Source of the DNA: Pseudomonadota bacterium
GTDB taxonomy: Bacteria > Campylobacterota > Campylobacteria > Campylobacterales > Sulfurimonadaceae
Direction: 5' to 3'
Length of the DNA: 64,000 bases
Assembly: GCA_043797085.1 (NCBI GenBank)
Contig: JAZDQA010000011.1
Span: 32,001-96,000 of the forward strand
Under the pieces are notes generated by a model. The model saw only the letters and a program-made list of their open reading frames with translations. It searched no databases and was not told the DNA's origin. Position 1 is the first letter of the stretch; each line of letters begins with the position of its first letter. This document shows, piece by piece, positions 37,014 through 59,957 of this stretch. A program made the position numbers and the translations under genes.

Positions 37014-37913
37014 TTACATTACCTTCTCTTCTTGATTGTTATCACTCACTTCCGTTCGTTCTGTCATGGGCTCAATGTAGGCTGGACGGAACCCGATGAA
37101 GCTGTACGAGACCGAACGAGCAGCGCCCAGATACAAGGCACCGAGCCCAGCATCCGCACCACCGTACCAATTCCCGCCACGGAACGGCAAACGTTCATCG
37201 CAGTTATCAGCCCAAAAATAGCCTTTTATATCTGTCATGTTGTGTTGTTGAGGTGGTACGATCAACGCTTTGAATAGAAGCTCATCGATTACAACACCGT
37301 CCAATACTTTGGTTTCAACCCAGCGGTTACCGTCATAATCTTCATTTGTAACCGCATTTCCGAAAATTGGTATTCCGTCATTGATGTCCACATGGGTATC
37401 AAATCGTTTCCATTCAGACTCATGCGCTGAAAAATCATTATCATGAGGCATAATGATCTGACCATCGATAAGCTTTAACCCATCGACCCACTCCCATAAC
37501 GATCCGACTCCACCGACGGCGTTTTTACCCTCTTTCAGGCTCCACATTGCCATCGCTGACCACTCCCAGTTCGTCATGAGATGCCATCCTGCACCTTTAT
37601 CCGAACAATGTTTTTTCGCATCATCAAAATCAATCCTTACTACCGGACTGCCGTTCTCATCTTTCTCGTGCCCCATACCGATATGGATGGCATCAATCTC
37701 GACCCCGTTAATGATGAATGCTGGATGAATGCCAGATCCGAATCGTGGGTCCACATCTTCAATGCGAAACTTTGGTATGATTTTCATATCATTATTTTTG
37801 CCATGCTGATCATAGATGGCTGTTATCTCTTTTTGCATAATTTTCTCCCAATATACAAAGCCGTACCGTGTAGCTACCGTGACACGCACTTTTTTCTTTA
37901 TTCTGAGTCCCAC
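37014..37913 (-). CDS. second (remote) DGR target protein, Mtd-like/CLec-fold paralog; alternative start at 37838
   Basis: Shares HPAFI.NGVE, KGAGWH.MTNWEW, WEW.DGLKL and RGG.W...GFRPAY with the 58394 gene; carries VR2. Confidence 0.9.
   Translation of the reverse strand: MGLRIKKKVRVTVATRYGFVYWEKIMQKEITAIYDQHGKNNDMKIIPKFRIEDVDPRFGSGIHPAFIINGVEIDAIHIGMGHEKDENGSPVVRIDFDDAKKHCSDKGAGWHLMTNWEWSAMAMWSLKEGKNAVGGVGSLWEWVDGLKLIDGQIIMPHDNDFSAHESEWKRFDTHVDINDGIPIFGNAVTNEDYDGNRWVETKVLDGVVIDELLFKALIVPPQQHNMTDIKGYFWADNCDERLPFRGGNWYGGADAGLGALYLGAARSVSYSFIGFRPAYIEPMTERTEVSDNNQEEKVM
37082..37191 (-). repeat. DGR variable repeat VR2
   Basis: Ungapped 110-nt match to TR (59848-59957) with 14 mismatches, all at TR adenines. 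Confidence 0.95.
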
Positions 37914-37958
37914 TGGAACTACCTCATATTTTTATAGAACTCCATGTATGGAATGTGG

Positions 37959-38738
37959 TTAAACCTGATACGATTTAACGCCCTCAATACTGTCACAGAT
38001 ACTCTGTGTGAGTTGTCGGCGTGTTTCCTCTTCGAGTTGGTCGATGTTGTAACAGATCAGCTCTGCAACAAACGCACCGTCCTGAGCACTCAAAAATAAC
38101 TCTGTCTCAAAGCGGGTGGTTAGTTCACGATCATTGGTATAGATTGGAAACTCAAAAGTAATAATCCGTGGGATTTCAACGTTTGCTTTTCCAGTTCGGA
38201 CAGTGGCATCAATGCTAAACTTGTTTGATGCATTTCGCTGGATGCTGTCAATTGTTGTGATTCCCTGCAAGCTCTCTGCCATGTCGATGATGTCCATGTC
38301 ATCTGCTTTTTTGTTATCCAGTGCAACGATGAACGGCTCCATACGTTTAAGGAAGCGAATAAAATCTTTTTGACTGATTGATCTTCCATTGTTTGCTCGG
38401 TAATGTTTATAGTCATCAGTTTGGATCAGAGGCATAAGCGCTGCACTGTCACCGTAATCAGGTTGTGAAGCTGTGATATAGTTGAATACGGCTTTTACCC
38501 TGCCATCATCATAGAAAAGCTTTGTAGCGTTTGTTTTGTACTCAGTAACGAATGCAATGAAGTCATCTTTGTTGATGATACTTTGTGATACAACATGCCG
38601 TGCCAATTCAGGCTTAAGGTGGAGTGGCTGCATACTATTATCAATTTTATAGTCTTGGTGTGTAGCTCTAGCCCCATTATCAAGAAGTACACTTGGTATT
38701 CTAAATGCATCGATAAGCGGTCTTAAAAAATCTTTCAT
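37959..38738 (-). CDS. DUF2303 (YfdQ-like) phage protein
   Basis: DFIAFV, AVFNY, SQKDFIRFL and F.FPIY pattern, paired with a ~108-aa upstream gene. Confidence 0.6.
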   Translation of the reverse strand: MKDFLRPLIDAFRIPSVLLDNGARATHQDYKIDNSMQPLHLKPELARHVVSQSIINKDDFIAFVTEYKTNATKLFYDDGRVKAVFNYITASQPDYGDSAALMPLIQTDDYKHYRANNGRSISQKDFIRFLKRMEPFIVALDNKKADDMDIIDMAESLQGITTIDSIQRNASNKFSIDATVRTGKANVEIPRIITFEFPIYTNDRELTTRFETELFLSAQDGAFVAELICYNIDQLEEETRRQLTQSICDSIEGVKSYQV

Positions 38739-39061
38739 TGGTTAACTCCCGGAAGTATTTGTTGGTTTGGACGGTTACGTGATGGCATAAATGTTTGCTC
38801 ATTAACAAAGAAGCCTGTTTTGATCTTAGGTCGAGGGATGGTATGACTTACATCTCCAACCATAGTGATCTGATCATCAGCGACTTTGGAAATTTCGAGC
38901 TTGATAGTGATGGTCGATTTTTTCTCCTGAATCATGGTGGCTTTTACACATTCTTTCAGTGCTCGGGCGGTGTTATCCGCAATGTCTCCGTTTCCAATAG
39001 TTCTAAAAGCATTGATAAACGCATCGATCTCAGAGGCGAAAACCTCGGGGTTCTGTTCCAT
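38735..39061 (-). CDS. phage hypothetical protein (usual partner of DUF2303)
   Basis: K..ITIKLEI...P.....FFV......SR..P.Q pattern; coupled to the downstream gene. Confidence 0.6.
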   Translation of the reverse strand: MEQNPEVFASEIDAFINAFRTIGNGDIADNTARALKECVKATMIQEKKSTITIKLEISKVADDQITMVGDVSHTIPRPKIKTGFFVNEQTFMPSRNRPNQQILPGVNQ

Positions 39062-39185
39062 AGTGATTCCTTCGGGTTGAGTATTTAATCAGGGCAGGCG
39101 CCTTACCCTCATGTAGATACTCGATTTTCATGGTGAAACCCTCTGATATAATGTTGCTGCAACACAAATCAAAACAAAAGGCTTC

Positions 39186-39455
39186 ATGATGGAAATAACG
39201 GTTAATTATCAAGGGCATAGCGGAGTAAATCTCAGTGTTAAAGATTCAATGAGCTATATGCCAAGAGTAGGGGAAATGATTCATAATCCATCTGTCGAAG
39301 ATAGTGGGTGTACGGGCATGTTTGTTATCTATGATATTACACATGAACGTGCAGATGATGGATCGTTCTCATGTGTTGTTCAATGTATTGAATTTGGAGA
39401 TGTTGATGATAAACGTGACAGGCTTGCTGAAAGCGGCCATCTTACCTATCATTAA
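39186..39455 (+). CDS. hypothetical protein on the strand opposite the early operon
   Basis: 89-aa ORF with MPRVGE motif. Confidence 0.55.
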   Translation: MMEITVNYQGHSGVNLSVKDSMSYMPRVGEMIHNPSVEDSGCTGMFVIYDITHERADDGSFSCVVQCIEFGDVDDKRDRLAESGHLTYH

Positions 39456-39679
39456 GCTGATATAAACAACGCTTCAAACTCTTTACGAAATTTGATGATC
39501 TCATCGCGTAGTTTCATCATTTTTTCGTTGTATGCTTTTATATCTTCTGCTCTGTCAATATTATTTTTTGAATAATAACTACCTAGAGGAGAAAATGAGT
39601 AATATAAATCTTGCTCAATATTTCTAAGATTATTGGATACTTCTACCGCTTTTCGTATTTCATCAAATTTAACTTCCAT
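39452..39679 (-). CDS. phage hypothetical protein
   Basis: 75-aa ORF, AAGGAG RBS. Confidence 0.55.
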   Translation of the reverse strand: MEVKFDEIRKAVEVSNNLRNIEQDLYYSFSPLGSYYSKNNIDRAEDIKAYNEKMMKLRDEIIKFRKEFEALFISA

Positions 39680-39884
39680 AATCTCTCCTTGAGTATTTTG
39701 TAAACCACCTCGAAAGATGATTTATTAAAAACTCTTGCACCACTGCTTCGTGGCTCAGTCACCCTCACGGTAACTCATCCCAAACCAGCACCACCGATCA
39801 ACGGCTTCTTTCCACTGTAGGGCTCAGGGAAACTCTTCCCCGTATTTTGAGCATAGGCTCAATAGATCACACGCTATGTGTAAT

Positions 39885-40136
39885 CTATGAAACTATTTTT
39901 ATATCGTTTGAGCGGCAGTAGGTATGGAACCCGTTGCAGTTCTTTTTTAGGTATTCGTAAATTAGTTTGTCGAGAGGAGTACTCTTTCCGTTTCGAACTA
40001 ATTTATCATGAAGACGTTGCTTCATAGATGATGGTTTTGCTCCTATCTCTTTTGATGCAGTTTCAAAGCTTTTGCCTGAAACTAACAATCCTAGTTTTAC
40101 GTTTTGATATAGAGATAGATGCTGGTTAAATGCCAT
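39885..40136 (-). CDS. small putative DNA-binding protein (Cro/Ner-like position)
   Basis: First gene after the leftward promoter, HTH-like SFETASKEIG.KPSSMKQRL. Confidence 0.55.
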   Translation of the reverse strand: MAFNQHLSLYQNVKLGLLVSGKSFETASKEIGAKPSSMKQRLHDKLVRNGKSTPLDKLIYEYLKKNCNGFHTYCRSNDIKIVS

Positions 40137-40210
40137 TTTTGTTAAACCTTTTGAGTATTGCTAATCATGCGTTATAATCTTGTTTACGTTATGCAAACGT
40201 AAACGGATAA

Positions 40211-40267
40211 AGCAATTATAGACAACATTGTCAAGTAATGTCAAGAGGAAGTGTCAAGTTATGTCAA
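40211..40267 (-). promoter_or_regulatory. leftward phage promoter and TGTCAA operator array
   Basis: Minus strand TTGACA-18nt-TATAAT; TGTCAA at 40229, 40239, 40252 and 40262. Confidence 0.7.
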
Positions 40268-40932
40268 CATGGTATGAAAGATTAAAAAAATTACGTGAAC
40301 AAAAGAGCCTTAGTCAGACTCAATTAGGTGAAAAAATAGGCAAAGACTTAACCGCAATAAGTAGGTATGAGAATGGAAGTGGAGCACAAAATCTTACTTA
40401 TAAATTAAAACAAAGTTTACGCTGGGTATTTACGCCTGAAGAAATAGAGTATATTGAGCATGGTGCTATAGTTGAACCTGATAATACGACTAATAATGGA
40501 GTGGTAAAAAATACAATATTAGTTCCCATTATATCTGCAAAGGCAAGTGGTTCACCGGTTGGTGAGATTCACTATGAGGTTGTGACAAAAGGGGAGCTAT
40601 CGATTGCAAGGATGCTATTTAGGACAATGCCAAACGTAGAAAATATACAAGCGATAGAGGTGATCGGGAATAGTATGTCCCCTCGAATTAATCCTGGGGA
40701 TTATGTCATTATCGATAAAGCCGATTCTTTTAATCAAGATGGGGTTTATGTGTTGCAGTTTGATAGTATGTTATTAGTGAAAAGATTGCAGGTAACGACA
40801 AAAGGGATTAAGATCATCAGCGATAACCGATCATACGATGATGACATGTATGATCCCGAAGATGATCAGCGTATGATGCATATCATCGGAAAAGTTATTT
40901 TAGTGATCAATAGAGATATGGCATCGTTCTGA
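40261..40932 (+). CDS. CI-like phage repressor (XRE HTH plus S24 peptidase)
   Basis: RLKKLREQKSLSQTQLG...ISRYENG; V.GNSMSP.I..GD and VKRL autocleavage motifs. Confidence 0.9.
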   Translation: MSTWYERLKKLREQKSLSQTQLGEKIGKDLTAISRYENGSGAQNLTYKLKQSLRWVFTPEEIEYIEHGAIVEPDNTTNNGVVKNTILVPIISAKASGSPVGEIHYEVVTKGELSIARMLFRTMPNVENIQAIEVIGNSMSPRINPGDYVIIDKADSFNQDGVYVLQFDSMLLVKRLQVTTKGIKIISDNRSYDDDMYDPEDDQRMMHIIGKVILVINRDMASF

Positions 40933-40943
40933 TAGTCACTTAA

Positions 40944-41600
40944 TTATTTTGGCGCTGCACTACTATATTCACCATAAAATTCATTTAACCATTCTTCGCC
41001 TTGAGCAGTAAAAATATCTAGTTTTGCATAAGAGAAAAATTGAAGGTAAGTGAGATTATTCCATTTATCTGGCAAATAATTTCTACTTACTTCAATCCTT
41101 GCCCACGTATTTGAATGATCACCATCCCAAATAACAAAAGTAATTTTTCCAATATCTGATCTAGCAAATAATTTTTTACTTAGATTAAATGCTTTAATTG
41201 CAACACTATTCCATGCCTGTACCCCACTCCAACTACTTGATTCTATCTCTATGTCGATATTATTAAGCCCTTTATGTTCTCCTGCATATTGCATTTGTAT
41301 GTTAGCAGATACAACATCAGAAGATATTGACTTTATAGATTCTTCTGATAATTTTTTAGTATTTATGTAGGTATCACTTTCTATTATAGCAACTTCTTTT
41401 TGTTCATTTTTTGGTGTATTAATATTTTCAGATTTTGGAGCTGCAATAGCTATAATAATCGTCCATACTAGAAAACCTGCTACCCCACCTACTAAATGAG
41501 AAATAATCTTTCCATCCCCTTTTCCTATTCTATTTTTTGATAGGTATTTCCATGTAAAGTATGCTGCGATTCCGCCTACAATAAAAAATAAAAATGTCAC
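40944..41600 (-). CDS. AT-rich membrane-anchored phage accessory (moron-like) protein
   Basis: Two N-terminal TM helices then a soluble domain; convergent with the repressor. Confidence 0.65.
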   Translation of the reverse strand: MTFLFFIVGGIAAYFTWKYLSKNRIGKGDGKIISHLVGGVAGFLVWTIIIAIAAPKSENINTPKNEQKEVAIIESDTYINTKKLSEESIKSISSDVVSANIQMQYAGEHKGLNNIDIEIESSSWSGVQAWNSVAIKAFNLSKKLFARSDIGKITFVIWDGDHSNTWARIEVSRNYLPDKWNNLTYLQFFSYAKLDIFTAQGEEWLNEFYGEYSSAAPK

Positions 41601-41609
41601 AATAGTCTC

Positions 41610-41858
41610 CTAATTACATAGTGATTCGCATGGAACCCCATCTTTGTCTCTGTCGAGTTTTCTAACTCCACACTCATTTAGATAAAACTTTGCCTCAGCA
41701 CAGGTATTCATCTCTTTACATTTATCTTTTCCGCTGCAAGAGAATCTCTCTGACTTTTGCTTTGGCTCTTTTTTCTGTTTTTCTGCCGCGTTTAGCGTGC
41801 ATGAGCTCATAATTATAACCGACAACACGGCAACTTTTAGTATTTTGTATTCTTTCAT
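41610..41858 (-). CDS. exported Excalibur calcium-binding domain protein
   Basis: Signal peptide then C....C.EM.TC.EA...L..C....LDRDKDGVPCE. Confidence 0.8.
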   Translation of the reverse strand: MKEYKILKVAVLSVIIMSSCTLNAAEKQKKEPKQKSERFSCSGKDKCKEMNTCAEAKFYLNECGVRKLDRDKDGVPCESLCN

Positions 41859-41880
41859 TTAAGACTCCTAAAATTAAAAA

Positions 41881-41926
41881 ACTTGACAATACTTGACAAT
41901 AGTGTCAATTAATGTCTATAATTGCA
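41881..41926 (+). promoter_or_regulatory. rightward phage promoter with TTGACA/TGTCAA operator repeats
   Basis: ACTTGACAAT tandem repeat, TTGACA-18nt-TATAAT (41893-41922). Confidence 0.7.
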
Positions 41927-41981
41927 GACCAACCTATTTATCTGAGCGGCGGTTGGACCTTCGGGGCCGCTCTTCAGATAA

Positions 41982-42518
41982 GTGTCCAAAGGATACACAA
42001 TGCCTATCTCGAAAACTACATGGTTCTATAAAGCAATCGACTCAGCTCTAAACGCTTTTGGTGAACGTCATCACATAACAGCTCGCCAACATTTCGCGCC
42101 ATTGCTCGGATATCATGGTGATAATGCAAGCATACAGCTCGGAACCGCTCTGAATTGTACCACATACAACCCCATCACCCCAAAACCTATTTCTATCGAT
42201 CAACTCTCTGTCTTACTTGATGAGCTTGGAAGTGATAAAAAAATCATCCTAGATGCTATTGCAAAACAATGTGATGGCGTTTTTAACTTCAGTGCACAGG
42301 CTTCACCAACACAAAGTGAAAGTGTAAAGGATGAGTTGTTGATGATCGCAGCATTTGCCGGTAACTTATCGGCAAAGTTTTTGGAGTACAAAAACAATGA
42401 CGGATGCATCGATGAACTTGAGGCGAATGAGCTAGAGCGTATCGCGTATGAGACACGACAACACTTGAGATCATTCGAAGATATGATTGAACTTCAAAAA
42501 GCAAAAATGGAGGATTGA
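41982..42518 (+). CDS. phage regulatory protein, CII-like (start probably 42000)
   Basis: First gene after the rightward promoter; C-terminal DG.ID..EA..L motif seen in phage CII-type proteins. Confidence 0.55.
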   Translation: MSKGYTMPISKTTWFYKAIDSALNAFGERHHITARQHFAPLLGYHGDNASIQLGTALNCTTYNPITPKPISIDQLSVLLDELGSDKKIILDAIAKQCDGVFNFSAQASPTQSESVKDELLMIAAFAGNLSAKFLEYKNNDGCIDELEANELERIAYETRQHLRSFEDMIELQKAKMED

Positions 42519-42798
42519 TATGGCAAAGATAACGTTTAAAAAAGGTTCCACACCGTATACGCTTCACACTCACTTCTCTTTAGGGGGGTCATTTACTTAT
42601 GATGAAGCCTACCAAAAAGATATTCGCCATCTTTCTCAGCGTATTGCTGATCTAAAGTCTAAATTTTTAGAAGCTGGTATCAAAGATTTGATCATGGTAA
42701 TCGATGAGCCAAATGAGCGTGGTGGATTTCATGCCCGGTATTTTTATCGTGGGTATGGTTGCCTGCTGGAAAATAAAGATGGAGCGAGGGTCTACTAA
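42487..42798 (+). CDS. small winged-helix phage protein (start probably 42520)
   Basis: T..EA....I..LSQRIADL....ARY pattern; GGAGG RBS. Confidence 0.55.
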   Translation: MNFKKQKWRIDMAKITFKKGSTPYTLHTHFSLGGSFTYDEAYQKDIRHLSQRIADLKSKFLEAGIKDLIMVIDEPNERGGFHARYFYRGYGCLLENKDGARVY

Positions 42799-42934
42799 TG
42801 AGAATTAAACATAATCTCCTCCTCACTGCTAATAAGATCGTTATGAAAACCCCTATCCTATCATTTAATATCAAAGTAAAAATTAGAAAAATAATTATGA
42901 CTGAGCTGAAATCCAGCGGGTTTAAAGGTCTATA

Positions 42935-44197
42935 ATGGAACAGCACCTCTATAACCTTGCTTTTGAGCGTTCAGTTCTTTCATCGCTTTTGTTTATTCAT
43001 GATTTTGATACTGTAGATGAGATGGTAGCTCTACTCAATGAAGATCTGTTTTTTCTCCAATCCCACAAAGATATTTGTGCTGCCATTATTAAGCTTCAAT
43101 TATCTGGGTTACCGATCGAAGAGAGTTTTATCCAAAAACACATGGTGCAAACTGGTAAGTTCGATGAAAGAGTGATGGTTGAAATCCTGACAGCTAACAG
43201 CATGGCGAACATAAAACCATATATCGATGCTCTTATGGAGTTTGCACGAAAGCGAAAGCTAGAACAGCTGTCATTCAATATCCGAAAAATGATTAGTGAA
43301 GAAAATAATAGTGCTGATGACATTGAATCCATGCTAGAACTATCTCTCAGTGAGTCTCAGATCAAGAGCGGTATGACGATGCCTGTCACAATGGAGAGAG
43401 CTATCGAAGAGTTCCATAACATGACAATCCCTGAACCGATTCGTACTGGTATAGAAAGCCTCGATAATCTACTGTGTGGAGGGTTTGAACCTGCACAACT
43501 CGTTCATATCGGTGGAGAGCGTAACGTCGGTAAAACAACGCTCATGAAGCAGATATTATTTAATACATCAGTCAACTACGACACACTCTTCTTTAGCTTC
43601 GAAATGCCTAAATGGAAGATGGCCAAATATACTGAGCGTATGACCGGTAAAAGCAATATGAAGCGGTATCACATCATCGACACGAACATGATGAAAAGCC
43701 GTGACGTTACTGATGTAGCACGTATGATCAGAACAATGTGGAGAAAACACGGTATACGATTCGCGCTGATAGATTCAAAGATGAAACTAAACCACCGTTC
43801 TTATAAAGGGAACAGTGACGCTGAGAAAAAAGGAGAGATTGACTCTATCCTCAGTGCAGTAACGCAAGAGACTGGAATCGTTATCCTGATGATTGTACAG
43901 GCTTCACGTGAAGAGCTAAAGAACGGAAAGATGGGAAGCTACGGTTCTGTATTGTCCGACTATGAGACAGATATGCAGCTGATGCTTAAAAAGACTGATG
44001 GTGGGATAGAAGTAAGTTGTGAGAAGAATCGACAAGAGGTATTACATTACCCTGCGAAACTTTGGTTTAACGAGAAAGAGCTGAAGTTTGACAGTATAAA
44101 AGCGGACATTGTGCACTATAAGATGCCATCATCGTATACGGATCGCGCTTCTTTGATTGCAGGCAATGATGAGAAAGTTGAGATTGTAGTCCTATGA
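42935..44197 (+). CDS. DnaB-like replicative helicase
   Basis: ERSVLSSLL N-terminal domain, TGIESLDNL..GF, Walker A GERNVGKT, FFSFEM, Q.SRE, KNR. Confidence 0.85.
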   Translation: MEQHLYNLAFERSVLSSLLFIHDFDTVDEMVALLNEDLFFLQSHKDICAAIIKLQLSGLPIEESFIQKHMVQTGKFDERVMVEILTANSMANIKPYIDALMEFARKRKLEQLSFNIRKMISEENNSADDIESMLELSLSESQIKSGMTMPVTMERAIEEFHNMTIPEPIRTGIESLDNLLCGGFEPAQLVHIGGERNVGKTTLMKQILFNTSVNYDTLFFSFEMPKWKMAKYTERMTGKSNMKRYHIIDTNMMKSRDVTDVARMIRTMWRKHGIRFALIDSKMKLNHRSYKGNSDAEKKGEIDSILSAVTQETGIVILMIVQASREELKNGKMGSYGSVLSDYETDMQLMLKKTDGGIEVSCEKNRQEVLHYPAKLWFNEKELKFDSIKADIVHYKMPSSYTDRASLIAGNDEKVEIVVL

Positions 44198-45030
44198 GAA
44201 TGAATTATAAGAGCTACCCAACCGATTTTATTCAACAACTCAAACGTGAGCGTGGTGTAGCAGGCCGTAAGAAAGCGCGTGCGTTTATGGAGTTTTGGGA
44301 TGATATGGAACATGGAGATCACAACAGTGAATCATTTTATGCAAAGTCATGGGACGTATCTCGCAGTACTTCTCATGAATGGATCAAAGAGTTTAAAATA
44401 GAAATGGACTTATATATCGATCACATGTTCTTAAAAAATCAGCAACACTATAATCACGCTGTATTTTCAACCGAGCAAAACGAGCAAAGACAACCGAGCA
44501 AAACGAGCACAAATAAACCCCGTACTATAGGCACTTCTACAATATCAACCGAGCAAACCGAGCAAGGCTTACCGAGGGAAGCTTTTAATCTATATGATAA
44601 TAATAACGTGCGTGAACTTCGTAGAGAATGGTGGAATGATGCTGAGTTTAACGATTTGTTTTTTATCTACTCTCAGAATACTAAGTTCGTCGGTAAAAAA
44701 GAGGATGCATTCGAACAATTCACTAAAACAGAAATGAACCCATCTATCATAATCCTATCCGCTGTCCAATATCTACATGATCCTGCTATCGGTGGGAAAC
44801 ACTATAATCTTGCAAACTTCCTCAAAAATGAAACATACTTGGCATATATTCCTAAGATGATCAAGGTGCGCCATGGTGATCAAGACATCGTCGGTGAGTA
44901 TGATCGAGTCAATCAGCGTATCATTGAGAGTGGAAGCAATCGTTTTATAGTGTTGACTCCCGAGCGATTAGTTGAATTATTCAAAGCAGGTGCATTAGAG
45001 TTTATCAAACCAGTGGGGAGAGCAGCATGA
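44194..45030 (+). CDS. putative phage replication initiator
   Basis: N-terminal HTH-like segment, central iteron-encoded linker, KKEDAFEQF and L.NFLK C-terminal motifs; coupled to the helicase gene. Confidence 0.65.
   Translation: MRMNYKSYPTDFIQQLKRERGVAGRKKARAFMEFWDDMEHGDHNSESFYAKSWDVSRSTSHEWIKEFKIEMDLYIDHMFLKNQQHYNHAVFSTEQNEQRQPSKTSTNKPRTIGTSTISTEQTEQGLPREAFNLYDNNNVRELRREWWNDAEFNDLFFIYSQNTKFVGKKEDAFEQFTKTEMNPSIIILSAVQYLHDPAIGGKHYNLANFLKNETYLAYIPKMIKVRHGDQDIVGEYDRVNQRIIESGSNRFIVLTPERLVELFKAGALEFIKPVGRAA
44468..44610 (+). repeat. iteron cluster and AT-rich tract, candidate phage replication origin
   Basis: CGAGCA at 44472, 44481, 44495, 44504, 44550 and 44559, followed by ttttaatctatatgataataataa. 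Confidence 0.65.
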
Positions 45031-45617: not shown

Positions 45618-45752
45618 TAAAAACATTAAGGTACTCCGCCATAGTTACCGTAGTGCGGGGCTTAAGACTCGCGGAAAGTCTCTATTTTTTGAGTCCTAAA
45701 CTTCCTAAACTTTCCAGTTGTGGAATGTTTACTAAACAAACAATAGGGTAGA

Positions 45753-48686: not shown

Positions 48687-48923
48687 TTGGTTTTGGCACA
48701 AACACTCGGACAACAACTTGACGCTGTTCAAACTGCTATCTCAGCTGTAGAGACTTCTCAAAGCTATGAGATGGACGGCAGGAAACTTACCAGAGCCGAT
48801 CTTTCAACACTTTACAAACGCGAAGATTCCCTAATCTCAAAGATCGAGATTTTCGGACGCGACTATGCACCTGGACAAAATACATCTCCTATGAAAACGA
48901 GAGCTAATGTTCGATTCTCTTAA
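48687..48923 (+). CDS. gpW-like head-tail joining protein
   Basis: QSYEMDGRKLTRADL..L motif between terL and portal. Confidence 0.7.
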   Translation: MVLAQTLGQQLDAVQTAISAVETSQSYEMDGRKLTRADLSTLYKREDSLISKIEIFGRDYAPGQNTSPMKTRANVRFS

Positions 48924-52246: not shown

Positions 52247-52256
52247 GGAGTAAGTA

Positions 52257-52598
52257 ATGGCAAAAGAAGCAACACAATATCAAGATGGTGATGTAATCGA
52301 CTATACCTTAGCAGGTGCAGTCGATGTAGGGGATGTTGTACCACTGGGTACAGGTATGATCGGTATTGCACTGAGTAGCGGATTAGCTGGAGAGGTTATT
52401 GGGCTTGCAATTGAAGAGGTTTATGAGATCAATGCAACTACAGCAGATGTAATCGCAATCGGTGATATTGTTTATTTTAATGCTACTACGCGGGCAATTA
52501 CAATAACAGCAACATCAAATACTCGTGCGGGCCGTGCAGTAAGTAAAAAAGCAGCAGCAACAGCCGGTACTGTTTTTGTAAAAATTAACGCAGCGTAA
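52257..52598 (+). CDS. DUF2190-type capsid decoration/cement protein
   Basis: Q.GD.IDY....V..GDVV....GIA....G..VY pattern after the capsid gene. Confidence 0.75.
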   Translation: MAKEATQYQDGDVIDYTLAGAVDVGDVVPLGTGMIGIALSSGLAGEVIGLAIEEVYEINATTADVIAIGDIVYFNATTRAITITATSNTRAGRAVSKKAAATAGTVFVKINAA

Positions 52599-52609
52599 GG
52601 GGGCATTCG

Positions 52610-52882
52610 ATGTTTGTGAAACTTCATCGCAATGAAACATATCGTGGCGCTAGTCATCAAGAGGGGGACATCATCGAAGTTGGTGATGATCTCGGAGGTC
52701 GTATGATCTTGTCCGGTACAGCAACCAAGGCTACAAAGCCAGAGGATAAAGTAACTGCTGAAACTATTGATGCAATGCCATATAAAGATATGAAGAAACT
52801 TGTATCTGAATTAAGTATTGAAACATCAGATACAAAAATGCCAACTTATTCGGCAGCGCTTAAAGCGCACTACGGGGTATAA
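52610..52882 (+). CDS. phage hypothetical protein
   Basis: 90 aa in the head-tail module. Confidence 0.6.
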   Translation: MFVKLHRNETYRGASHQEGDIIEVGDDLGGRMILSGTATKATKPEDKVTAETIDAMPYKDMKKLVSELSIETSDTKMPTYSAALKAHYGV

Positions 52883-52884
52883 AA

Positions 52885-53193
52885 ATGTTTAAAGAGCAGC
52901 TTCAAAAAGATTTGGATGTTTTTATAAACCCAAATGAGTTTGGATCGGCTGCTCTTTATAATGGAGAACCAATAGCTGTTGATTTTAGAAGCTCCAGCGA
53001 TGTTGTTTTTGATCGTGGAAATATTCACGATGTCAGCAGTTCTGTCCCTGTATGTTTTTGCAAAGAAAGTGATATCCAAGGTATAGAAAATGGAGACTCG
53101 ATTGTGATCGATGGCGCTATTTTTTATGTTTTAGATTCTGATGAATCATCAGGTGGGATACAAAAAATTTATTTAAGTAAGGATAGACCGTGA
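52885..53193 (+). CDS. head-tail joining protein
   Basis: FKEQLQKDL.VF.N..EF...GD.I.IDG..F.V. Confidence 0.65.
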   Translation: MFKEQLQKDLDVFINPNEFGSAALYNGEPIAVDFRSSSDVVFDRGNIHDVSSSVPVCFCKESDIQGIENGDSIVIDGAIFYVLDSDESSGGIQKIYLSKDRP

Positions 53194-55449: not shown

Positions 55450-56211
55450 ATGAATATTATTGATAATGCAGCATGGGATGACATCTATCTAATCGAAACG
55501 AGCGATTACGTTTTAGGGGGAGTAGAGGGAACCAGCAACGAACAGGCAAAAGCTCTCGCTAACCGTACCCGATATCTGCGCGATTTGCTTGAAGCAATTG
55601 AAAATGAAATAGCGCTAATGCCGACATCGAATGTGATGAATCAGGCGCTTTCGCTCAAAGCTGATAAAACCTATACAGATACGGAGCTTGGCAAAAAAGC
55701 CGACAAAACCTATGCAGATAACAAGCTGGGGCTCAAAGCGGATAAAACCTATGTCGATGATGGGTTTGCTATAAAATCGTCGGTAACTGCCAAAGCTGAT
55801 AAAACCTATACAGACACGGAGCTTGGCAAAAAAGCTGACAAATCTTATACAGACACGGAGCTTGGCAAAAAAGCGGATAAAAGCTATGTTGATAATAACT
55901 TTTTGGCAGCATCAAAAATTGTTACTGCAACATCCGGTGAGGTACAAACTTCAGCCCGTGCAGGTGGACAATTGCAGGCCAATTGGAACTATAACTTCGC
56001 AGATATATATCCTCCATCAGGGTTTACGATGTCAAATTTAATTGGCTTTATATGCTCCCCTGCAATTATTTACTTTAATGGAGCGGTAAATGGAGATGAT
56101 ACTTTGTACTGCCGTTGGGAACGACGGCTTGATTATGTGCGTGTCATCTGCCAAAACAGTGAAAACCGAGCAGTCAGTTCTATAAACTATCTTGCGATGT
56201 GGCAAAAATGA
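55450..56211 (+). CDS. tail fibre-like protein with KADK repeats
   Basis: W..IYLIETSD.VLGG..G.SN.QA..LANRT.YL N-terminus typical of tail fibre proteins; six KADK(T/S)Y repeats. Confidence 0.75.
   Translation: MNIIDNAAWDDIYLIETSDYVLGGVEGTSNEQAKALANRTRYLRDLLEAIENEIALMPTSNVMNQALSLKADKTYTDTELGKKADKTYADNKLGLKADKTYVDDGFAIKSSVTAKADKTYTDTELGKKADKSYTDTELGKKADKSYVDNNFLAASKIVTATSGEVQTSARAGGQLQANWNYNFADIYPPSGFTMSNLIGFICSPAIIYFNGAVNGDDTLYCRWERRLDYVRVICQNSENRAVSSINYLAMWQK
55657..55895 (+). repeat. 39-bp (13-aa) coding repeats KADK(T/S)YxDxxLGx
   Basis: Six units, several nearly identical in DNA (aaagctgataaaacctatacagatacggagcttggcaaa). Confidence 0.85.
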
Positions 56212-56928: not shown

Positions 56929-58074
56929 ATGGCAGTTACAGGCATACCAACAACATCAGGCTTAACGATCCTATCCGGATCACTTAAAGAAGGGGTAACG
57001 AAATTTGCCCTCTACGGCACATCGACCGCTACTACTGACGTACCGTTTACGGAAGTGAGCACGATCGCAACGCTTGCATCGTATTTGGTTGGAACGTTTG
57101 ATGTGAGCCGTGGGTATTTTGATCAGACTGGCGTGCTCACATTTGAGTGTCCAATTCCATACAACACCGATTCGACTAAATGGGTAGGAGCATGCGGCCT
57201 GATCCATGTCAATCCATCTACCGGAGAAAGCACACTCGTTGCGATAACTCAGGTACCTAAGTTTCAAAAGGTATCCGGTATCGGAGGAACTATTATCTAT
57301 AAAGTGCCAATCGCAGGAACAGCTGGATCACCGGTATTTGGTACTGAGAGCTATGCGACCAGTGTGCAGGTCGATGAGCGTCTCAATGAACTATATAGCG
57401 GTTTAATGATCGCGATGGATCAGGCGGGGCTTGCTAATAAAGAGATTGAAAAGACACGAACTAAGCGGATACAGTCGGGGGTGATCACACTCAAAAATCG
57501 AGGGGTTATCAAAGGGTGTACTCTCACAAAAAGTATTACGGCTACTCGTAACCTGAGTCTTGGCAATGGCACGGCATACATGAACGGACAAATCCTTGCG
57601 GTAGCTGATCAGCTCAATACCGCTGTGGTACCGGTTAATACCGATGTCGTTTCGAAGACATGTTATGCCTATATGTGGATCGATACGTCTGGCAACGTGC
57701 AGGTGGACTGTACTGCTTTGGGTGGAAGTGTCCCTAGTACCGCTATGGCTATGTATCTCATCACGGTACCCGCCAACTCTACGGAGGCAACCGATCCGAA
57801 TCTCGCACTGTGTACTCTGACCGACGTACGGGTAATCGAGCCGAGCTATCCGAAGATGCTGGTCAATGCTCCATATACCTATGTCGCGCTTCCTTACGAC
57901 ATGATCGAAACCGATTACAGCATCGAGCTAGACGTGATGGAGTTCTCAGGTGGAGGATTTCAAATGGGTTATGTCTATGCTGGTGCTCGTGCTAAAAACG
58001 GTTTTTCTATATATATGAACGGTACCTCCGATACTTTAACAGTACGCTGGACCGCTAAAAAAACAAACTTATAA
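56929..58074 (+). CDS. tail fibre/collar protein
   Basis: 381-aa beta-rich protein after gpI and upstream of the DGR target. Confidence 0.6.
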   Translation: MAVTGIPTTSGLTILSGSLKEGVTKFALYGTSTATTDVPFTEVSTIATLASYLVGTFDVSRGYFDQTGVLTFECPIPYNTDSTKWVGACGLIHVNPSTGESTLVAITQVPKFQKVSGIGGTIIYKVPIAGTAGSPVFGTESYATSVQVDERLNELYSGLMIAMDQAGLANKEIEKTRTKRIQSGVITLKNRGVIKGCTLTKSITATRNLSLGNGTAYMNGQILAVADQLNTAVVPVNTDVVSKTCYAYMWIDTSGNVQVDCTALGGSVPSTAMAMYLITVPANSTEATDPNLALCTLTDVRVIEPSYPKMLVNAPYTYVALPYDMIETDYSIELDVMEFSGGGFQMGYVYAGARAKNGFSIYMNGTSDTLTVRWTAKKTNL

Positions 58075-58084
58075 AGGGGAATGA

Positions 58085-58393
58085 ATGATTGTTAAAGAAA
58101 TGCAGCCGGACGGAAACTTCGAAGATTACTTATTAGAAGGATCGGTTCTTAAAATCGGTAAGCAGATTATGGATATCGACGAGCTTCAAAAAGAGGAACA
58201 AGTCATCATCGACATCATCGAGGATGGACGCTTTGTTGCCAATATCATAATACCCCCTGCTGTGTATGAAGAAATACAGGAGCCTACGGTGGAGGGTGAG
58301 CCATCTATTCCACCAGTAAAGGTTCTGATAGACATGGACGCGGTCAAACTTATCCTATGGGATAAACCAATCTTAACAGTAGAAGGAGAATAA
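58085..58393 (+). CDS. phage hypothetical protein (possible fibre adaptor)
   Basis: 102 aa, abuts the DGR target gene start. Confidence 0.6.
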   Translation: MIVKEMQPDGNFEDYLLEGSVLKIGKQIMDIDELQKEEQVIIDIIEDGRFVANIIIPPAVYEEIQEPTVEGEPSIPPVKVLIDMDAVKLILWDKPILTVEGE

Positions 58394-59455
58394 ATGCCGA
58401 CGATTTTTACAAAAGACACACTCCGTGCGAGTGTAGAGGCCAGCACTGGCGGAAAGGTCACCGTGCTCTATGATGACAAAGGATACCCGAGCTATATGCA
58501 CGTCGTTCCGAAATTCAATGTTCAGGATATCGATGTTTCTTTGGGTACCGGAGTACACCCGGCGTTTATCGTCAATGGTGTGGAGAAGAGCGAAATCTTT
58601 ATCGGTCAGCATCTCGCGCACGTTCGTGATGATCGTGCGGTAAGTTTGCCAGGTCTTGATCCTAAAACCGGAGTCACATTTGATCAGGCACGTACGTATT
58701 GTAAAAACAAGGGTGCAGGCTGGCACATGATGACGAACTGGGAGTGGGCGGCCGTCTCACTATGGGCACTTAAAAATGGGTTTCAGCCTCGAGGTAACAC
58801 GAACTATGGACGAAGCCATGAGGCGACGTATGAAACGGCAGCACGAATGGACGGCGGAGCACCTGGTGTCACTACCGGAACTCCTCGAACACTAACCGGA
58901 GGCGGACCAGCATCATGGCGTCATGATAATACCTATGCGGGTATCGCTGATCTCGTCGGGAACGTGTGGGAGTGGCAAGATGGGCTCAAACTCGTGGATG
59001 GAAAAATCATAATGCCCGCCGATAACCACTACTCTCTCGATGAAGCGTCATGGGCGGATACCGGTGTGCGTTTTGATGGTACGGTTGCCTCTGCTGGGTT
59101 GGACGGATCGTACGGAGATGTCGGTGATCCGATCCTAAGCGACGCGATCATCAACTACCTCGGGCCAACCGGGGACAATGGCTCTTACGATTACTCGACG
59201 ATTGCGAACTGGAGAAGCCTCACGGCAAAAGCCGGATACACAGTCCCTAATAACATGAAGCAGGCATTGATCTATCCATACGATGCGGTAAACCCAAAAG
59301 GTTATCTCTATATGCGTAACTACGGGGAGCGTTTGCCGGTCCGTGGCGGGTATTGGAGCGATGGTGCGGGTGCTGGGCTCGGTGCCTTGAATCTGACCAA
59401 TGCTCGTTCGTACTCGGGCAGCCACATCGGGTTCCGTCCAGCCTACATTATGTAG
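58394..59455 (+). CDS. DGR target protein 1, Mtd-like receptor-binding protein (CLec/FGE-sulfatase-like fold)
   Basis: MTNWEW, DLVGNVWEW, C-terminal RGG.W...R......IGFRPA containing VR1; lies in the tail fibre module. Confidence 0.92.
   Translation: MPTIFTKDTLRASVEASTGGKVTVLYDDKGYPSYMHVVPKFNVQDIDVSLGTGVHPAFIVNGVEKSEIFIGQHLAHVRDDRAVSLPGLDPKTGVTFDQARTYCKNKGAGWHMMTNWEWAAVSLWALKNGFQPRGNTNYGRSHEATYETAARMDGGAPGVTTGTPRTLTGGGPASWRHDNTYAGIADLVGNVWEWQDGLKLVDGKIIMPADNHYSLDEASWADTGVRFDGTVASAGLDGSYGDVGDPILSDAIINYLGPTGDNGSYDYSTIANWRSLTAKAGYTVPNNMKQALIYPYDAVNPKGYLYMRNYGERLPVRGGYWSDGAGAGLGALNLTNARSYSGSHIGFRPAYIM
59332..59441 (+). repeat. DGR variable repeat VR1
   Basis: Ungapped 110-nt match to TR with 10 mismatches, all at TR adenines. 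Confidence 0.96.
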
Positions 59456-59491
59456 CAGTGATGGATTGAGCGATAGCGAAAGGATCTAAGA

Positions 59492-59827
59492 ATGAACGGA
59501 AGATATCTCCTGCTGGAGAAAAAGATCAGAGACCTGAAAATGTATCTTGGGGTGATGCTTCGCAATTATCCACGGTACGAAAAATTCGCTATCGCGCATG
59601 AGATACAGTCGAACATCACCATGATGCAAAGAATGGTGATCGCAACGGGCAAAAAGTATTTTAAAAAGACGGATCTTCGCGATCTTGATATCGAGCATGA
59701 AATGCTCCGACAAAATATACTCATCTCGTATGAGATGAAGTACATCGATATGAGACGGTTCGAATATGTATCCGGTCTGATCGACGAAGTCGGAAGACTC
59801 ATCGGCGACTGGATATCAAAAATTTAG
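59492..59827 (+). CDS. avd: DGR accessory variability determinant (Avd-like four-helix protein)
   Basis: 111 aa, basic; YPRYEKFAI, L..LD.E..ML, EVGRLIG.W motifs; between VR and TR. Confidence 0.88.
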   Translation: MNGRYLLLEKKIRDLKMYLGVMLRNYPRYEKFAIAHEIQSNITMMQRMVIATGKKYFKKTDLRDLDIEHEMLRQNILISYEMKYIDMRRFEYVSGLIDEVGRLIGDWISKI

Positions 59828-59847
59828 GTTGCACTTCTCTTGTGTGT

Positions 59848-59957
59848 TTTGCCGATCCGTGGCGGGAATTGGAACGATGGTGCGAATGCTGGGCTCGGTG
59901 CCTTGAATCTGAACAATGCTCGTTCGAACTCGAACAGCAACATCGGGTTCCGTCCAG
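59848..59957 (+). ncRNA. DGR template repeat (TR), part of the DGR RNA in the avd-RT spacer
   Basis: Intergenic, 23 adenines, nine AAY codons in the VR reading frame; matches both VRs except at A. Confidence 0.95.

Follow-up and report, generated by a model that had tools for sequence, protein, structure and literature searches.

A prophage DGR whose single template very probably serves two paralogous targets, one of them remote and in the leftward operon

Gene map of the prophage and its DGR

The window, that is, the whole stretch of 64,000 nucleotides of DNA analysed here, holds the left end and the DGR of an integrated, myovirus-type prophage of ~38 kb. The prophage carries one complete DGR in the order T1-Avd-TR-RT, and a second target gene, T2, lies in its left arm. 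The following features are referred to below.

32886..32961, plus strand: tRNA-Met; attL, at its 3′ end, marks the left end of the prophage
35459-36265, minus strand: parB (Pfam, PHROG and NCBIfam matches); parA and parB together span 35459..36848
36243-36848, minus strand: parA (Pfam, PHROG and NCBIfam matches), immediately downstream of T2
36950..36979, minus strand: 13-bp perfect hairpin, 35 nt past the T2 stop codon and before parA
37014..37913 or 37014-37838, minus strand: T2, the remote DGR target (phrog_2889, E 1.3e-62)
37074..37098, minus strand: putative IMH, the 25-nt 3′ end CATCGGGTTCCGTCCAGCCTACATT, exact in VR2 and VR1 and inside coding sequence in VR2
37082..37191, minus strand: VR2, the variable region of T2, with 22 codons downstream of it
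37959..38738, minus strand: DUF2303 gene (PF10065, E 1e-15; phrog_210), directly upstream of T2
40215..40244, minus strand: leftward promoter with perfect consensus TTGACA-18-TATAAT, heading the operon that holds T2
40228..40932, plus strand: CI/LexA-type repressor (profile matches to HTH_3 and Peptidase_S24); its true start is probably the ATG near 40268
56929..58393, plus strand: genes for a fibre-like 381-aa protein and a 102-aa protein (p102), upstream of T1
58394..59455, plus strand: T1, the cassette target, 353 aa, FGE-sulfatase/CLec (PF03781, E 3.4e-8; phrog_2889, E 3.3e-135)
59332..59441, plus strand: VR1, the C-terminal variable region of T1, which differs from TR at adenines only
59492..59827, plus strand: Avd accessory protein (Pfam bAvd, E 1.7e-19; phrog_3206, E 1.4e-24)
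59848..59957, plus strand: TR, 110 nt with 23 adenines
60118..61212, plus strand: DGR reverse transcriptase (RT), 364 aa (RVT_1, E 1.1e-21; phrog_1423, E 1.6e-92)
69911-70969, minus strand: integrase, within the prophage
71139 (window-equivalent position, outside the window): 17-nt repeat at the right end of the prophage

The RT motifs, as read from the DNA, are IGNLLSQ and YMDD; the pattern [I/V]GxxxSQ is a hallmark of DGR reverse transcriptases.

One template and two variable regions

The initial annotation had described a gapless 110-nt match between TR and VR2 in which every mismatch falls on a TR adenine, and this is exactly what we find: 14/14 mismatches coincide with TR adenines (hypergeometric P=4.4e-12), and the non-adenine positions of TR are unchanged in VR2 (87/87). 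The alignment of TR with VR1 is likewise gapless, with 10/10 mismatches at TR adenines (P=2.4e-8). The two variable regions carry different substitutions, as had been proposed: six adenines are altered in both, four only in VR1 and eight only in VR2, and 5/23 are intact in both. Within the reading frame of the targets, 22 of the 23 TR adenines are first or second codon bases, most of these codons being AAC or AAT. A repeat search recovered both relationships, one as a direct repeat (59332-59444 and 59848-59960; 113 nt, 90%) and the other as an inverted repeat (37079-37191 and 59848-59960; 113 nt, 87%) with 22,656 nt separating its arms. Annotation of the neighbouring genes bears out the placement of the VR2 gene ~22.7 kb from TR, on the opposite strand, between DUF2303 and parAB.

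It was also correctly noted that VR2 continues in the same way as VR1: after CCAG, both run on with CCTACATT, whereas TR runs on with ACTGTACG. The TR-VR homology extends to 59960, past the IMH*/IMH difference, which reads CCAGACTG in TR and CCAGCCTA in the variable regions and is also found in the Aliarcobacter prophages described below. Only three TR/VR copies are present in the 2.40-Mb genome (TR, VR1 and VR2); a whole-genome search yielded no further copy, its two other matches being 17 nt long with E 1.5. By analogy with BPP-1, the TR RNA would be converted by RT and Avd into adenine-mutagenised cDNA, which would then replace either VR, directed by their common 3′ end CATCGGGTTCCGTCCAGCCTACATT that is absent from TR.

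T2 is a diverged paralog of T1

T1 and T2 share 36% identity (124/343; E 2e-64). Their nucleotide identity is 84% in the VR vs 53% upstream, and third codon positions are identical at 36/36 codons inside the VR vs 36.9% of 222 codons upstream, indicating that TR keeps overwriting VR2. Judged from these identities, T2 is an old paralog of T1, and VR2 is a current, repeatedly overwritten target 22.7 kb away on the opposite strand. This agrees with the earlier proposal of a single TR that serves two proteins; the remote one is a diverged paralog in the non-structural left arm.

T2 had been annotated as 37014-37913. The gene is intact, but the GTG start at 37913 is doubtful: 7 nt of the GTG 37913 extension are deleted both in L025, a near-identical phage, and in run X2, and L025 additionally has a stop codon there. 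Because the extension is broken in both, ATG 37838 is the start common to all relatives and the more likely one by this comparison, giving a protein of 274 aa instead of 299 aa. The window and all 5 close orthologs have an uninterrupted frame from ATG 37838. The scaffold upstream of the VR has a dN/dS of 0.12, and inside the VR dN is 0.159 and dS 0.069.

T2 consists of a single CLec/FGE-fold domain and a 19-aa acidic, disordered C-terminal tail; it shows no hydrophobic N-terminus or signal peptide. The Pfam FGE-sulfatase match is sub-threshold (17 bits vs a cut-off of 23.3). The AF2 model (pLDDT 92.3, pTM 0.90) has TaqVP (5vf4) as its best PDB match (E 6e-25, TMq 0.82, 25% identity). These comparisons mark T2 as a conserved, free-standing TaqVP-like protein under purifying selection. 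Family, defence and counter-defence models gave no match to T2 or its unknown neighbours, and T2 has neither an effector or signalling domain nor a PADLOC match.

T2 lies in a leftward operon headed by a consensus promoter

The initial annotation had placed T2 in a leftward operon. In line with this, T2 lies ~2.3 kb downstream of the perfect consensus leftward promoter, whose 13-nt −10 block TGTCTATAATTGC equals that of the rightward early promoter at 41893-41922. The leftward promoter opposes the promoter of the repressor gene (40151-40178, plus strand), and its region contains four TGTCAA repeats that also occur in the rightward early promoter (as TTGACA repeats). A promoter scan found no promoter-like site in the 45-nt gap before T2. 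From its position in the operon, we infer that T2 would be made early after induction or infection. Downstream of T2, the segment 36930-37020 (minus strand) folds with −34.8 kcal/mol (z −3.9), and 1/200 shuffles were as stable. The hairpin at 36950..36979 within it may serve as a terminator or stabilise the RNA end; it has no clear U-tract, and the terminator scan made no call there.

In a groundwater metatranscriptome, contigs with the same sequence as the window span 37084-39185 and include VR2, the T2 body and DUF2303; the sequences of this run, which covers the prophage very unevenly, are contigs and indicate presence only, not strand, timing or level, and RNA libraries can contain DNA.

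T2 and its variable region in related phages

Conservation analysis showed that VR2 variation among related prophages falls almost only at TR-adenine codons, as predicted for an active target. In six T2 orthologs, 13/13 TR-adenine codons vary (mean 4.0 residues), compared with 3/23 for the other VR codons and 85/238 for codons beyond the VR (Fisher P=2e-7). The window and L025 differ at 14 VR2 positions, 11 at TR-adenine sites and 3 at non-adenine sites, as scored against the window TR, L025 being a fragment without a TR of its own.

The search for the same remote target in other prophages, suggested at the outset, identified it in two Aliarcobacter MAG prophages, which keep the T2-ParA-ParB plus T1-Avd-TR-RT-sheath layout at protein identities to the window phage of 41% (TerL), 64% (RT) and 47% (T2). 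They also offer a natural counterpart to the proposed tagged-template experiment. TR position 84, a non-adenine polymorphism, is T in one prophage and C in the other, and in each of the two both VR1 and VR2 match their own TR (T/T/T vs C/C/C); in the second MAG, the contigs concerned are separate and linked by binning alone. On this pattern, a natural TR marker is copied into VR2 in this sister lineage.

T2-ParA-ParB is present in L011, L016 and L025, and T2-parAB linkage is the sole neighbourhood kept across all 4 T2-type loci found. The Aliarcobacter gene order is CI, a 312-aa unknown, T2, ParA, ParB, with T2 following the repressor gene and sharing its strand, so that an "early lytic" placement is not a conserved property. 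Contigs of run X3 join 36945 to 37959/37961 and thus bypass the T2 gene; judging from these contigs, some relatives may be without T2 or have a very different allele.

Possible roles of T2

That one prophage DGR diversifies two paralogous CLec-fold proteins, T1 and T2, is very probable, and we hold the explanation as a whole with confidence that is high, if a shade lower. For T2 itself, we tentatively favour, at somewhat less than an even chance, a cytoplasmic, early-expressed hypervariable ligand binder that is not a virion part. Such a binder would act in phage-host or phage-phage conflict, in counter-defence or exclusion. This preference is supported by the absence of fibre or p102 genes beside every T2-type gene and by the Faecalibacterium phage FP_Lagaffe, which has a second target in its early region. 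Against it stand the near-identical N-termini of Aliarcobacter T1 and T2, which would suit docking at one virion site, the position of Aliarcobacter T2 behind the repressor gene, and the absence of any family, defence or counter-defence match for T2 or its unknown neighbours.

We prefer a cytoplasmic binder to a second receptor-binding tip on the tail-fibre module of T1, which we consider rather unlikely. As such a tip, T2 would provide the virion with a second, independently diversified specificity, and its place in the left arm would be mere genome organisation. T2 is indeed paralogous to T1, with which a conserved fibre-p102-T1 module ends, and the only role demonstrated by experiment for a phage DGR is tropism switching (BPP-1; PMC8144416). 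Moreover, the authors of the Faecalibacterium study suggest that having two Mtd-like targets doubles the effect on host range (PMC11792537). The N-terminal ~125 aa of Aliarcobacter T1 and T2 are nearly identical (57 of the 59 residues aligned within the first 70 columns), as expected for one docking partner, but recent gene conversion would explain this equally well. In the window lineage, however, the N-terminus of T2 has diverged from that of T1 (22/60 residues identical), L025 and X2 have a disrupted T1-like extension, the ~52-aa insert kept by most family members is missing, and the C-terminal tail is different. T2 is also encoded on the other strand, downstream of the leftward promoter, amid DUF2303, parAB and xis-like genes, with the nearest tail gene ~17 kb away, and is unaccompanied by a fibre or adaptor gene. 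By tblastn, the C-terminal domain of the fibre-like 381-aa protein (H381) was found at 26/51 loci and p102 at 19/51, but neither at the three T2-type loci searched (0/3); a paralog of H381 or p102 elsewhere in the genome was not found.

Clearly less probable again is a rex-like exclusion or sensing factor made in the lysogen, whose variable face would recognise proteins brought in by phages or mobile elements and which may cooperate with the conserved neighbours parA and parB. The Aliarcobacter arrangement, with T2 behind the repressor gene, and the persistence of the T2-parAB neighbourhood at all four loci fit such a factor. In addition, the RNA run that covers T2 and the immunity region has little cover of replication, terminase and portal genes, contig depth being a poor measure, and cellular DGRs are described as diversifying putative antigen sensors (PMC10907252). 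Conversely, T2 is without an effector or signalling domain or a PADLOC match, the operon promoter in the window diverges from the repressor gene and resembles a repressed early promoter, and the 45-nt gap before T2 provides no promoter-like site of its own. Finally, VR2 as the relic of a duplicated, formerly diversified target that is now unused or non-functional is disfavoured as very improbable: the lack of a hairpin after the VR2 IMH (a small one follows VR1), the X3 contigs that bypass the gene and the lack of visible read-level VR2 variation, the runs being contigs, are set against an intact frame in the window and 5/5 close orthologs with constrained scaffold, 87/87 non-adenine positions equal to TR in a gene whose body is 53% identical to T1, differences at 13/13 TR-adenine codons among close relatives, and marker transfer in the sister lineage.

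Comparison with known systems

The system resembles BPP-1 (mtd-avd-TR-brt) in its order target-Avd-TR-RT, its adenine-specific TR-to-VR differences, a VR placed C-terminally in a CLec fold and, at the 3′ side, an IMH-type end whose sequence is not the same in VR and TR. In contrast, BPP-1 has one target, an adjacent virion protein, and its Mtd resembles T2 only weakly in fold (1yu4, E 4e-3, TMq 0.34). BPP-1 homing needs a hairpin, which has no counterpart after VR2. TaqVP of Thermus aquaticus (PDB 5vf4) is likewise a stand-alone CLec-fold DGR variable protein, but it is longer (381 aa) and part of a cellular DGR; with its 274 aa, T2 is missing ~100 TaqVP residues. We know of no ligand or function assigned to TaqVP. 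Among cultured phages, the nearest relatives of T1 and T2 by sequence are the DGR targets of Vibrio phages VHML and VP585 (ORF35 and gp18; 32-33% identity over 84% of T2); each genome has one matching place with this query, which gives no hint of another target.

Temperate phages with a second DGR target that is distal, non-structural and on the opposite strand have already been described. Wu et al. (2018, NAR 46:11, PMC5758913) mention "many examples" of phage-associated DGRs with a non-adjacent target <50 kb from the RT, including, as here, one adjacent and one non-adjacent target in the same prophage; their passages on such targets stay at survey level, without analysis of module or function. 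Remote second targets have also been published for Faecalibacterium phages in 2024 (PMC11792537) and gut prophages in 2025 (PMC12629997).

According to the published description of the two-target Quimbyvirus DGR (Benler et al. 2021, Microbiome 9:78, PMC8008677), one VR lies in a gene after the tail-fibre genes and a second in an opposite-strand C-type-lectin gene distal to the structural module, which its authors read as a non-structural protein in phage-host conflict. As there described, Quimbyvirus differs in being a gut Bacteroides phage with an RT split over three frames, and its second target is surrounded by methyltransferases, a nuclease and a tRNA ligase; T2, by contrast, lies between DUF2303 and parAB.

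FP_Lagaffe (NC_047911; PMC11792537) is, like the window phage, a P2/Mu-type myovirus with a lambda-like head. It differs in its Firmicute host and in gp40, which has 420 aa with an internal VR, shares the strand of the late genes and neighbours exonuclease, Gam, ERF and SSB genes, not parAB. Like T1, its first target (gp26) is followed by Avd and RT, here after baseplate J/I, and gp40 is a second FGE/CLec target that heads the early recombination and replication region. We computed that all mismatches in its two VRs fall at TR adenines (VR1 13/13, VR2 11/11), and gp40 is the best tblastn match of T2 in this phage (26.5% identity, E 7e-14).

One template repeat and two variable regions

A repeat search of 36000-64000 returned a direct pair (59332-59444 and 59848-59960; 113 nt, 90%) and an inverted pair (37079-37191 and 59848-59960; 113 nt, 87%), the latter with 22,656 nt between its arms. 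Their common member contains the template repeat (TR, 59848-59957), which is 110 nt long and has 23 adenines. The two partners are variable regions: VR1 (59332-59441), in the target gene T1 adjacent to the cassette, and VR2 (37082-37191, minus strand), in the remote target gene T2, a paralog of T1. All 10 mismatches between VR1 and TR (P=2.4e-8) and all 14 between VR2 and TR (hypergeometric P=4.4e-12) are located at TR adenines, so that the ungapped TR-VR2 match with adenine-only mismatches described in the initial annotation proved right in every particular. The two VRs carry different substitutions, as had also been claimed: six adenines are changed in both, four in VR1 only and eight in VR2 only, and five are unaltered in both. 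A hand count from the mismatch lists gives 17 positions at which VR1 and VR2 differ, all of them TR adenines. Gene conversion between the VRs was rejected as the cause of their likeness, since each is nearer to TR than to the other. The repeat has only three copies in the whole 2.40-Mb genome, which together with the mismatch pattern supports the proposal that a single TR serves two targets.

Read in the frame of both targets, 22 of the 23 TR adenines, most of them in AAC/AAT codons, occupy the first or second codon position, as do all 18 substituted sites. The 3′ flank of the VRs differs from that of TR, in agreement with the initial annotation: ...CCAG is followed by CCTACATT in both VRs and by ACTGTACG in TR. 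The putative IMH, i.e., the 3′ end of the VR, comprises 25 nt common to VR1 and VR2 and ending in CCAGCCTACATT, compared to CCAGACTGTACG in TR; the same kind of 3′-end difference is present in Aliarcobacter relatives. The putative IMH of VR2 sits within coding sequence, and conservation of the VR 3′ end may reflect the protein, as part of the putative IMH encodes a conserved PAYI motif. No DNA hairpin or cruciform distinguishable from shuffled sequences was detected after the VRs (z-scores 0.38 and 0.25), and VR1 is followed merely by a 5-6-bp stem. Hairpins are described as absent from most DGRs in the survey text of Wu et al. 2018 (PMC5758913).

The cassette lies within a prophage tail module

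The DGR cassette is complete, consisting of T1, Avd, TR and RT:

58394-59455, T1 (Pfam FGE-sulfatase, E 3.4e-8; phrog_2889)
59492-59827, Avd (Pfam bAvd, E 1.7e-19, 70.7 bits vs a cut-off of 40; phrog_3206)
59848-59957, TR
60118-61212, RT (RVT_1, E 1.1e-21; phrog_1423, E 1.6e-92)

The motifs IGNLLSQ and YMDD can be read from the DNA of the RT gene, the former of which we take to be a hallmark of DGR-type RTs; all NCBIfam matches of the RT (group II and Drt) are sub-threshold. A P2-like tail module surrounds the cassette, which is preceded by genes for homologs of gpV, gpW and gpJ, a 253-aa fibre-like protein, a gpI homolog, a 381-aa fibre-like protein (H381) and a 102-aa protein (p102), and followed by sheath, tube and tape-measure genes. 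Within the gene of the 253-aa fibre-like protein (55450-56211) a 106-nt direct repeat occurs in four interleaved copies at 55656-55935, spaced by 39, 96 and 39 nt and 62-84% identical.

The prophage is ~38.2 kb long and is bounded by the following elements:

32886-32961, tRNA-Met, the prophage integration site
69911-70969, integrase, adjoining a 17-nt repeat of the tRNA 3′ end at window-equivalent 71139

The repeat at 71139, which adjoins the integrase, is preferred as attR. An 18-nt match to the 3′ end of tRNA-Met at window-equivalent 97005 was rejected, as it apparently lies inside another tRNA. To the right of attR, outside the window (L006 8736-15000), are genes for a CI-repressor-HTH protein and a 196-aa integrase-family fragment, a large SNF2/helicase gene and then a 1526-aa ORF, a set that may represent another mobile or defence island sharing this tRNA locus.

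VR2 behaves as a live target

T1 and T2 are old paralogs with 124 of 343 residues identical (36%). In codon alignment, the parts preceding the VR share 53% of nucleotides, and 36.9% at third positions (222 codons); inside the VR, third positions are equal at 36 of 36 codons, and VR2 equals TR at all 87 non-adenine positions. Such a fresh VR within old paralogs is explained only by repeated copying of TR.

T2 is, judged from sequence comparisons, a functional gene. Its frame is intact, and the pre-VR part has a dN/dS of 0.12 against the near-identical phage fragment L025, compared to 0.03-0.14 for neighbouring genes. Inside the VR, dN (0.159) exceeds dS (0.069). L025, found in a viral-contig scan, is 98.5-99.8% identical to the window in TerL, ParA, ParB and DUF2303, and 88% identical in T2; nucleotide divergence is 9.3% in the T2 body and 0.4-4.6% in its flanks. 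The VR2 sequences of the two phages differ at 14 sites, 11 of which are TR-adenine sites, and the other three may mirror the TR of L025 itself, which is absent from that contig fragment. Compared to the window TR, VR2 of L025 has non-adenine differences at positions 2, 70 and 94. A protein search yielded four further T2 orthologs with 74-90% identity (P0001-P0004). When window T2, these four and L025 were compared, variation was seen at every one of the 13 codons whose first or second base is a TR adenine (mean 4.0 different residues). Of the remaining VR codons, by contrast, 3 of 23 varied, and beyond the VR 85 of 238 (Fisher P=2e-7). Thus, the change at TR-adenine positions that the initial annotation expected in VR2 is seen across relatives.

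Two prophages in Aliarcobacter MAGs (L011+L013 and L012+L016), which are 96.5-98.2% identical to each other over aligned pieces, share the layout of the window; the second of these MAGs has its two loci on different contigs. Their TRs have a single non-adenine difference, T vs C at position 84, and in both prophages VR1 and VR2 carry the base of their own genome's TR at this position. VR2 mismatches lie at TR adenines in 15 of 16 and 18 of 20 cases, with the IMH/IMH* (TR counterpart) difference as the common exception. Position 84 amounts to a natural tagged-template experiment in which TR information moved into both VRs, the equivalent in this lineage of the tagged-TR transfer that the initial annotation had proposed as a test. 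The comparative evidence thus identifies VR2 as a live target with ongoing mutagenic homing. By analogy with BPP-1, RT and Avd would copy TR RNA into adenine-mutagenised cDNA, as outlined by Roux et al. 2021 (PMC8144416), and this cDNA would then replace either VR.

The T2 protein

T2 (37014-37838, minus strand; to 37913 with an upstream GTG) matches phrog_2889 with an E-value of 1.3e-62. Its match to Pfam FGE-sulfatase is below the cut-off (17 vs 23.3 bits), whereas T1 is above it. The AlphaFold2 model, based on an alignment of 52 rows, has a pLDDT of 92.3 and a pTM of 0.90, with disorder confined to the last ~20 residues. The first Foldseek match in the PDB is TaqVP, a DGR variable protein of Thermus aquaticus (5vf4, E 6e-25, TMq 0.82), followed at far lower significance by TvpA (2y3c, E 1.7e-3), PvdO, Mtd (1yu4, E 4.4e-3) and FGE. 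T2 is therefore modelled as a single CLec/FGE-type domain of the Mtd/TvpA/TaqVP class with a near-C-terminal VR (codons 216-252 of 274). It is without the ~52-aa insert that is present in T1 and most family members, and ends in a 19-aa acidic tail after PAYI. The N-terminus, read from the sequence, is not hydrophobic, indicating that there is no signal peptide.

Use of the GTG at 37913 would add 25 residues similar to the N-terminus of T1. The stretch between GTG and ATG carries a 7-nt deletion in L025 and in a contig of run X2, and in L025 also a TGG to TAG change. As the extension is broken in both, the ATG at 37838 is the start common to all relatives. A perfect 13-bp hairpin (36950-36979) lies after the T2 stop and before parA; the 91-nt stretch folds at -34.8 kcal/mol (z -3.9). 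PADLOC and NCBIfam gave no matches for T2, T1 or the uncharacterised left-arm genes.

A non-structural, probably early location

Every gene of the left arm is on the minus strand, and the order of transcription is small ORFs from 40136 down, phrog_204, DUF2303, T2, ParA, ParB, a number of unknown ORFs and an excisionase-like HTH protein, while the CI/LexA-type repressor gene is on the plus strand:

40228-40932, plus, CI/LexA-type repressor gene
38735-39061, minus, phrog_204 gene
37959-38738, minus, DUF2303 gene
36243-36848, minus, ParA
35459-36265, minus, ParB
32973-33161, minus, excisionase-like HTH protein

T2 is hence flanked by DUF2303 and parAB, on the strand opposite to all head and tail genes, and our annotation bears out this placement of the VR2 gene in the leftward operon. 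A promoter scan revealed two perfect TTGACA-18-TATAAT sites:

40244 to 40215, leftward promoter, reading into the T2 operon
41893 to 41922, rightward promoter, reading into CII-like, DnaB and structural genes

Both have an identical 13-nt −10 block and TTGACA/TGTCAA repeat arrays, and the leftward promoter opposes the likely repressor promoter at 40151-40178. We infer that they would form a repressor-controlled early pair. Of the early-operon location claimed for T2, the non-structural part thus stands, and the early part is probable from promoter sequence.

A 9-bp inverted repeat (GTTTACGTT / AACGTAAAC) at 40182-40204, in between the leftward promoter and that of the repressor, is a candidate operator. 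The segment from the repressor to the rightward promoter (40944-41858, minus strand) encodes a 218-aa unknown protein and an 82-aa protein with an Excalibur calcium-binding domain, a possible pair of lysogenic-conversion genes. This region is swapped in L025 (40934-41611 without alignment) and lies beneath the deepest RNA-library contig.

RNA and DNA contigs over the T2 region

In the groundwater metatranscriptome X1, 86% of sampled words of 36700-38800 are present, and all 25 contigs on 33000-52999 have at least 99% identity to the window. Among the matches listed, they cover 33000-35748, 37084-39861, 40185-42526, 43591-44114 and 50275-52877. The left arm and immunity region have a summed word depth of 18-44, compared to 2-7 for parAB and 0-5 for 42.5-50.2 kb; derived from contigs, this depth carries no strand, end or level information and is unsuited to ranking genes. 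This uneven cover favours RNA over contaminating DNA, and RNA of the T2 region probably exists in nature. One X1 contig identical to the window (37084-39185) spans T2, DUF2303 and phrog_204 and ends within the T2 frame, 2 bases from the 3′ edge of VR2, which may reflect a break in the assembly, the end of an RNA or coincidence; word depth stays low from this point to the end of parAB. In the DNA run X3, three contigs link 36945 to 37959/37961, so that exactly T2 and the hairpin are missing, the intervening sequence not being known. Some relatives may therefore be without T2 or hold a much diverged allele, and T2 may be a replaceable cassette.

Conservation of the layout

Conservation was analyzed in 51 loci retrieved with T2 from genome and viral contigs. 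The ordinary arrangement, a target followed directly by Avd and/or RT, occurs in 23 of them, and most others are cut off by the edge of a contig. In 26 of the 51 loci the target is preceded by the H381 C-terminal domain, and in 19 by p102. The remote target sought in related prophages, a short T2-type gene, was found only in L011, L016 and L025, besides the window, and at all four loci ParA and ParB follow at once. A search of 300 further genomes from the host's family did not detect T2, blastn of 35400-39100 against a phage collection gave no match, and a metagenome-contig scan returned the contig of L025 and one weak match. A Geobacter MAG contig (L015 9947-13544) has two T1-type targets in tandem directly upstream of Avd-TR-RT, so that both targets of this two-target DGR adjoin the cassette, whereas in the window one of them is remote.

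The Aliarcobacter phages are 41% identical to the window phage in TerL, 64% in RT, 65% in T1 and 47% in T2. Window T2 and Aliarcobacter T2 share the same deletion, indicating that the T2 type predates the split of these phages. The Aliarcobacter T2 (L011 9947-10795) shares its strand with the repressor gene, which precedes it, and DUF2303 is absent. Its N-terminal ~125 aa are almost identical to those of Aliarcobacter T1 (L013 9959-10945), with 57 of 59 identities in the first 70 columns and 125 of 213 beyond the shared stretch. The pattern is suggestive of recent gene conversion affecting the two genes, or of selection for a shared N-terminus; together with the repressor-side position, it cautions against a simple story.

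Possible roles of T2

T2 may be expressed early and act in the cytoplasm as a binder in conflicts of the phage with its host or with other phages, a reading to which we give slightly less than an even chance. It follows from the operon position, the opposite strand, the lack of fibre partners, the loss of the T1-like N-terminus and the analogous early-region position in unrelated phages. Somewhat more tentatively still, T2 could be an early-made, antibody-like binder that is hypermutated against variable intracellular opponents (host defence proteins or competing-phage proteins), maybe together with the adjacent ParA/ParB. Its layout recurs in unrelated phages of Campylobacterota, Firmicutes and Bacteroidota, which, if the reading is true, would make this a second general role for phage DGRs besides receptor switching.

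An alternative tail tip, suggested by the paralogy of T2 and T1 and by their identical N-terminus in Aliarcobacter, appears less likely than the binder, as in gene context neither H381 nor p102 is near the T2 gene or any of the three other T2-type genes (0 of 4 loci), and no paralog was found in the host genome. A predicted complex of H381 residues 153-381, p102 and T2 scored 0.00 in both runs, which were made without controls and weigh neither for nor against docking of T2 on the fibre. We regard an exclusion or sensor factor expressed in the lysogen as improbable, and give hardly any credence to VR2 being a relic.

Comparison with known two-target DGRs

To our knowledge, tail-fibre tropism switching is the sole demonstrated use of phage DGRs. 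The existence of a conserved, hypervariable protein that is under purifying selection and has its gene in an early region points to phages also using accelerated evolution on an intracellular actor. With 274 aa and a confident fold, T2 is a convenient candidate for ligand fishing.

The two-target layout is already in print, and our case does not open the question. The survey text of Wu et al. 2018 (PMC5758913) counts 73 non-adjacent targets in 45 of 372 DGRs, with "many examples" among phage-associated DGRs less than 50 kb from the RT, i.e., within the same prophage. The account of Roux et al. 2021 (PMC8144416) describes remote targets as undetectable by the method used. Two VRs in three phages are described in a Faecalibacterium study (PMC11792537), whose authors term their function intriguing, and phage DGR targets acting inside the cell were already raised by Benler 2021 (PMC8008677) and later papers. 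None of the articles returned by our literature search described this phage lineage or a DGR target linked to parAB.

The window case widens the known range of the layout beyond the gut phyla, to a prophage lineage from groundwater, and adds three elements that are mostly missing from published cases: the contrast between VR and scaffold divergence, which reflects continued overwriting, a natural transfer of a TR marker into both VRs, and a conserved linkage of T2 to parAB. The phenomenon itself is no longer surprising, and its interest lies in what early-region hypervariable proteins bind. By its sequence and location, T2 would be a distal, non-structural second target that shares its TR with a tail-side target, of the kind of Quimbyvirus ORF84 and Lagaffe gp40. 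We checked the latter: in FP_Lagaffe, gp26-Avd-RT follows baseplate J/I, gp40 heads the exonuclease-Gam-ERF-SSB-replication region, and the mismatches lie at TR adenines in 13 of 13 and 11 of 11 cases in the two VRs. Thus, gp40 is an early-region second target of its own DGR, as T2 probably is in the window phage.
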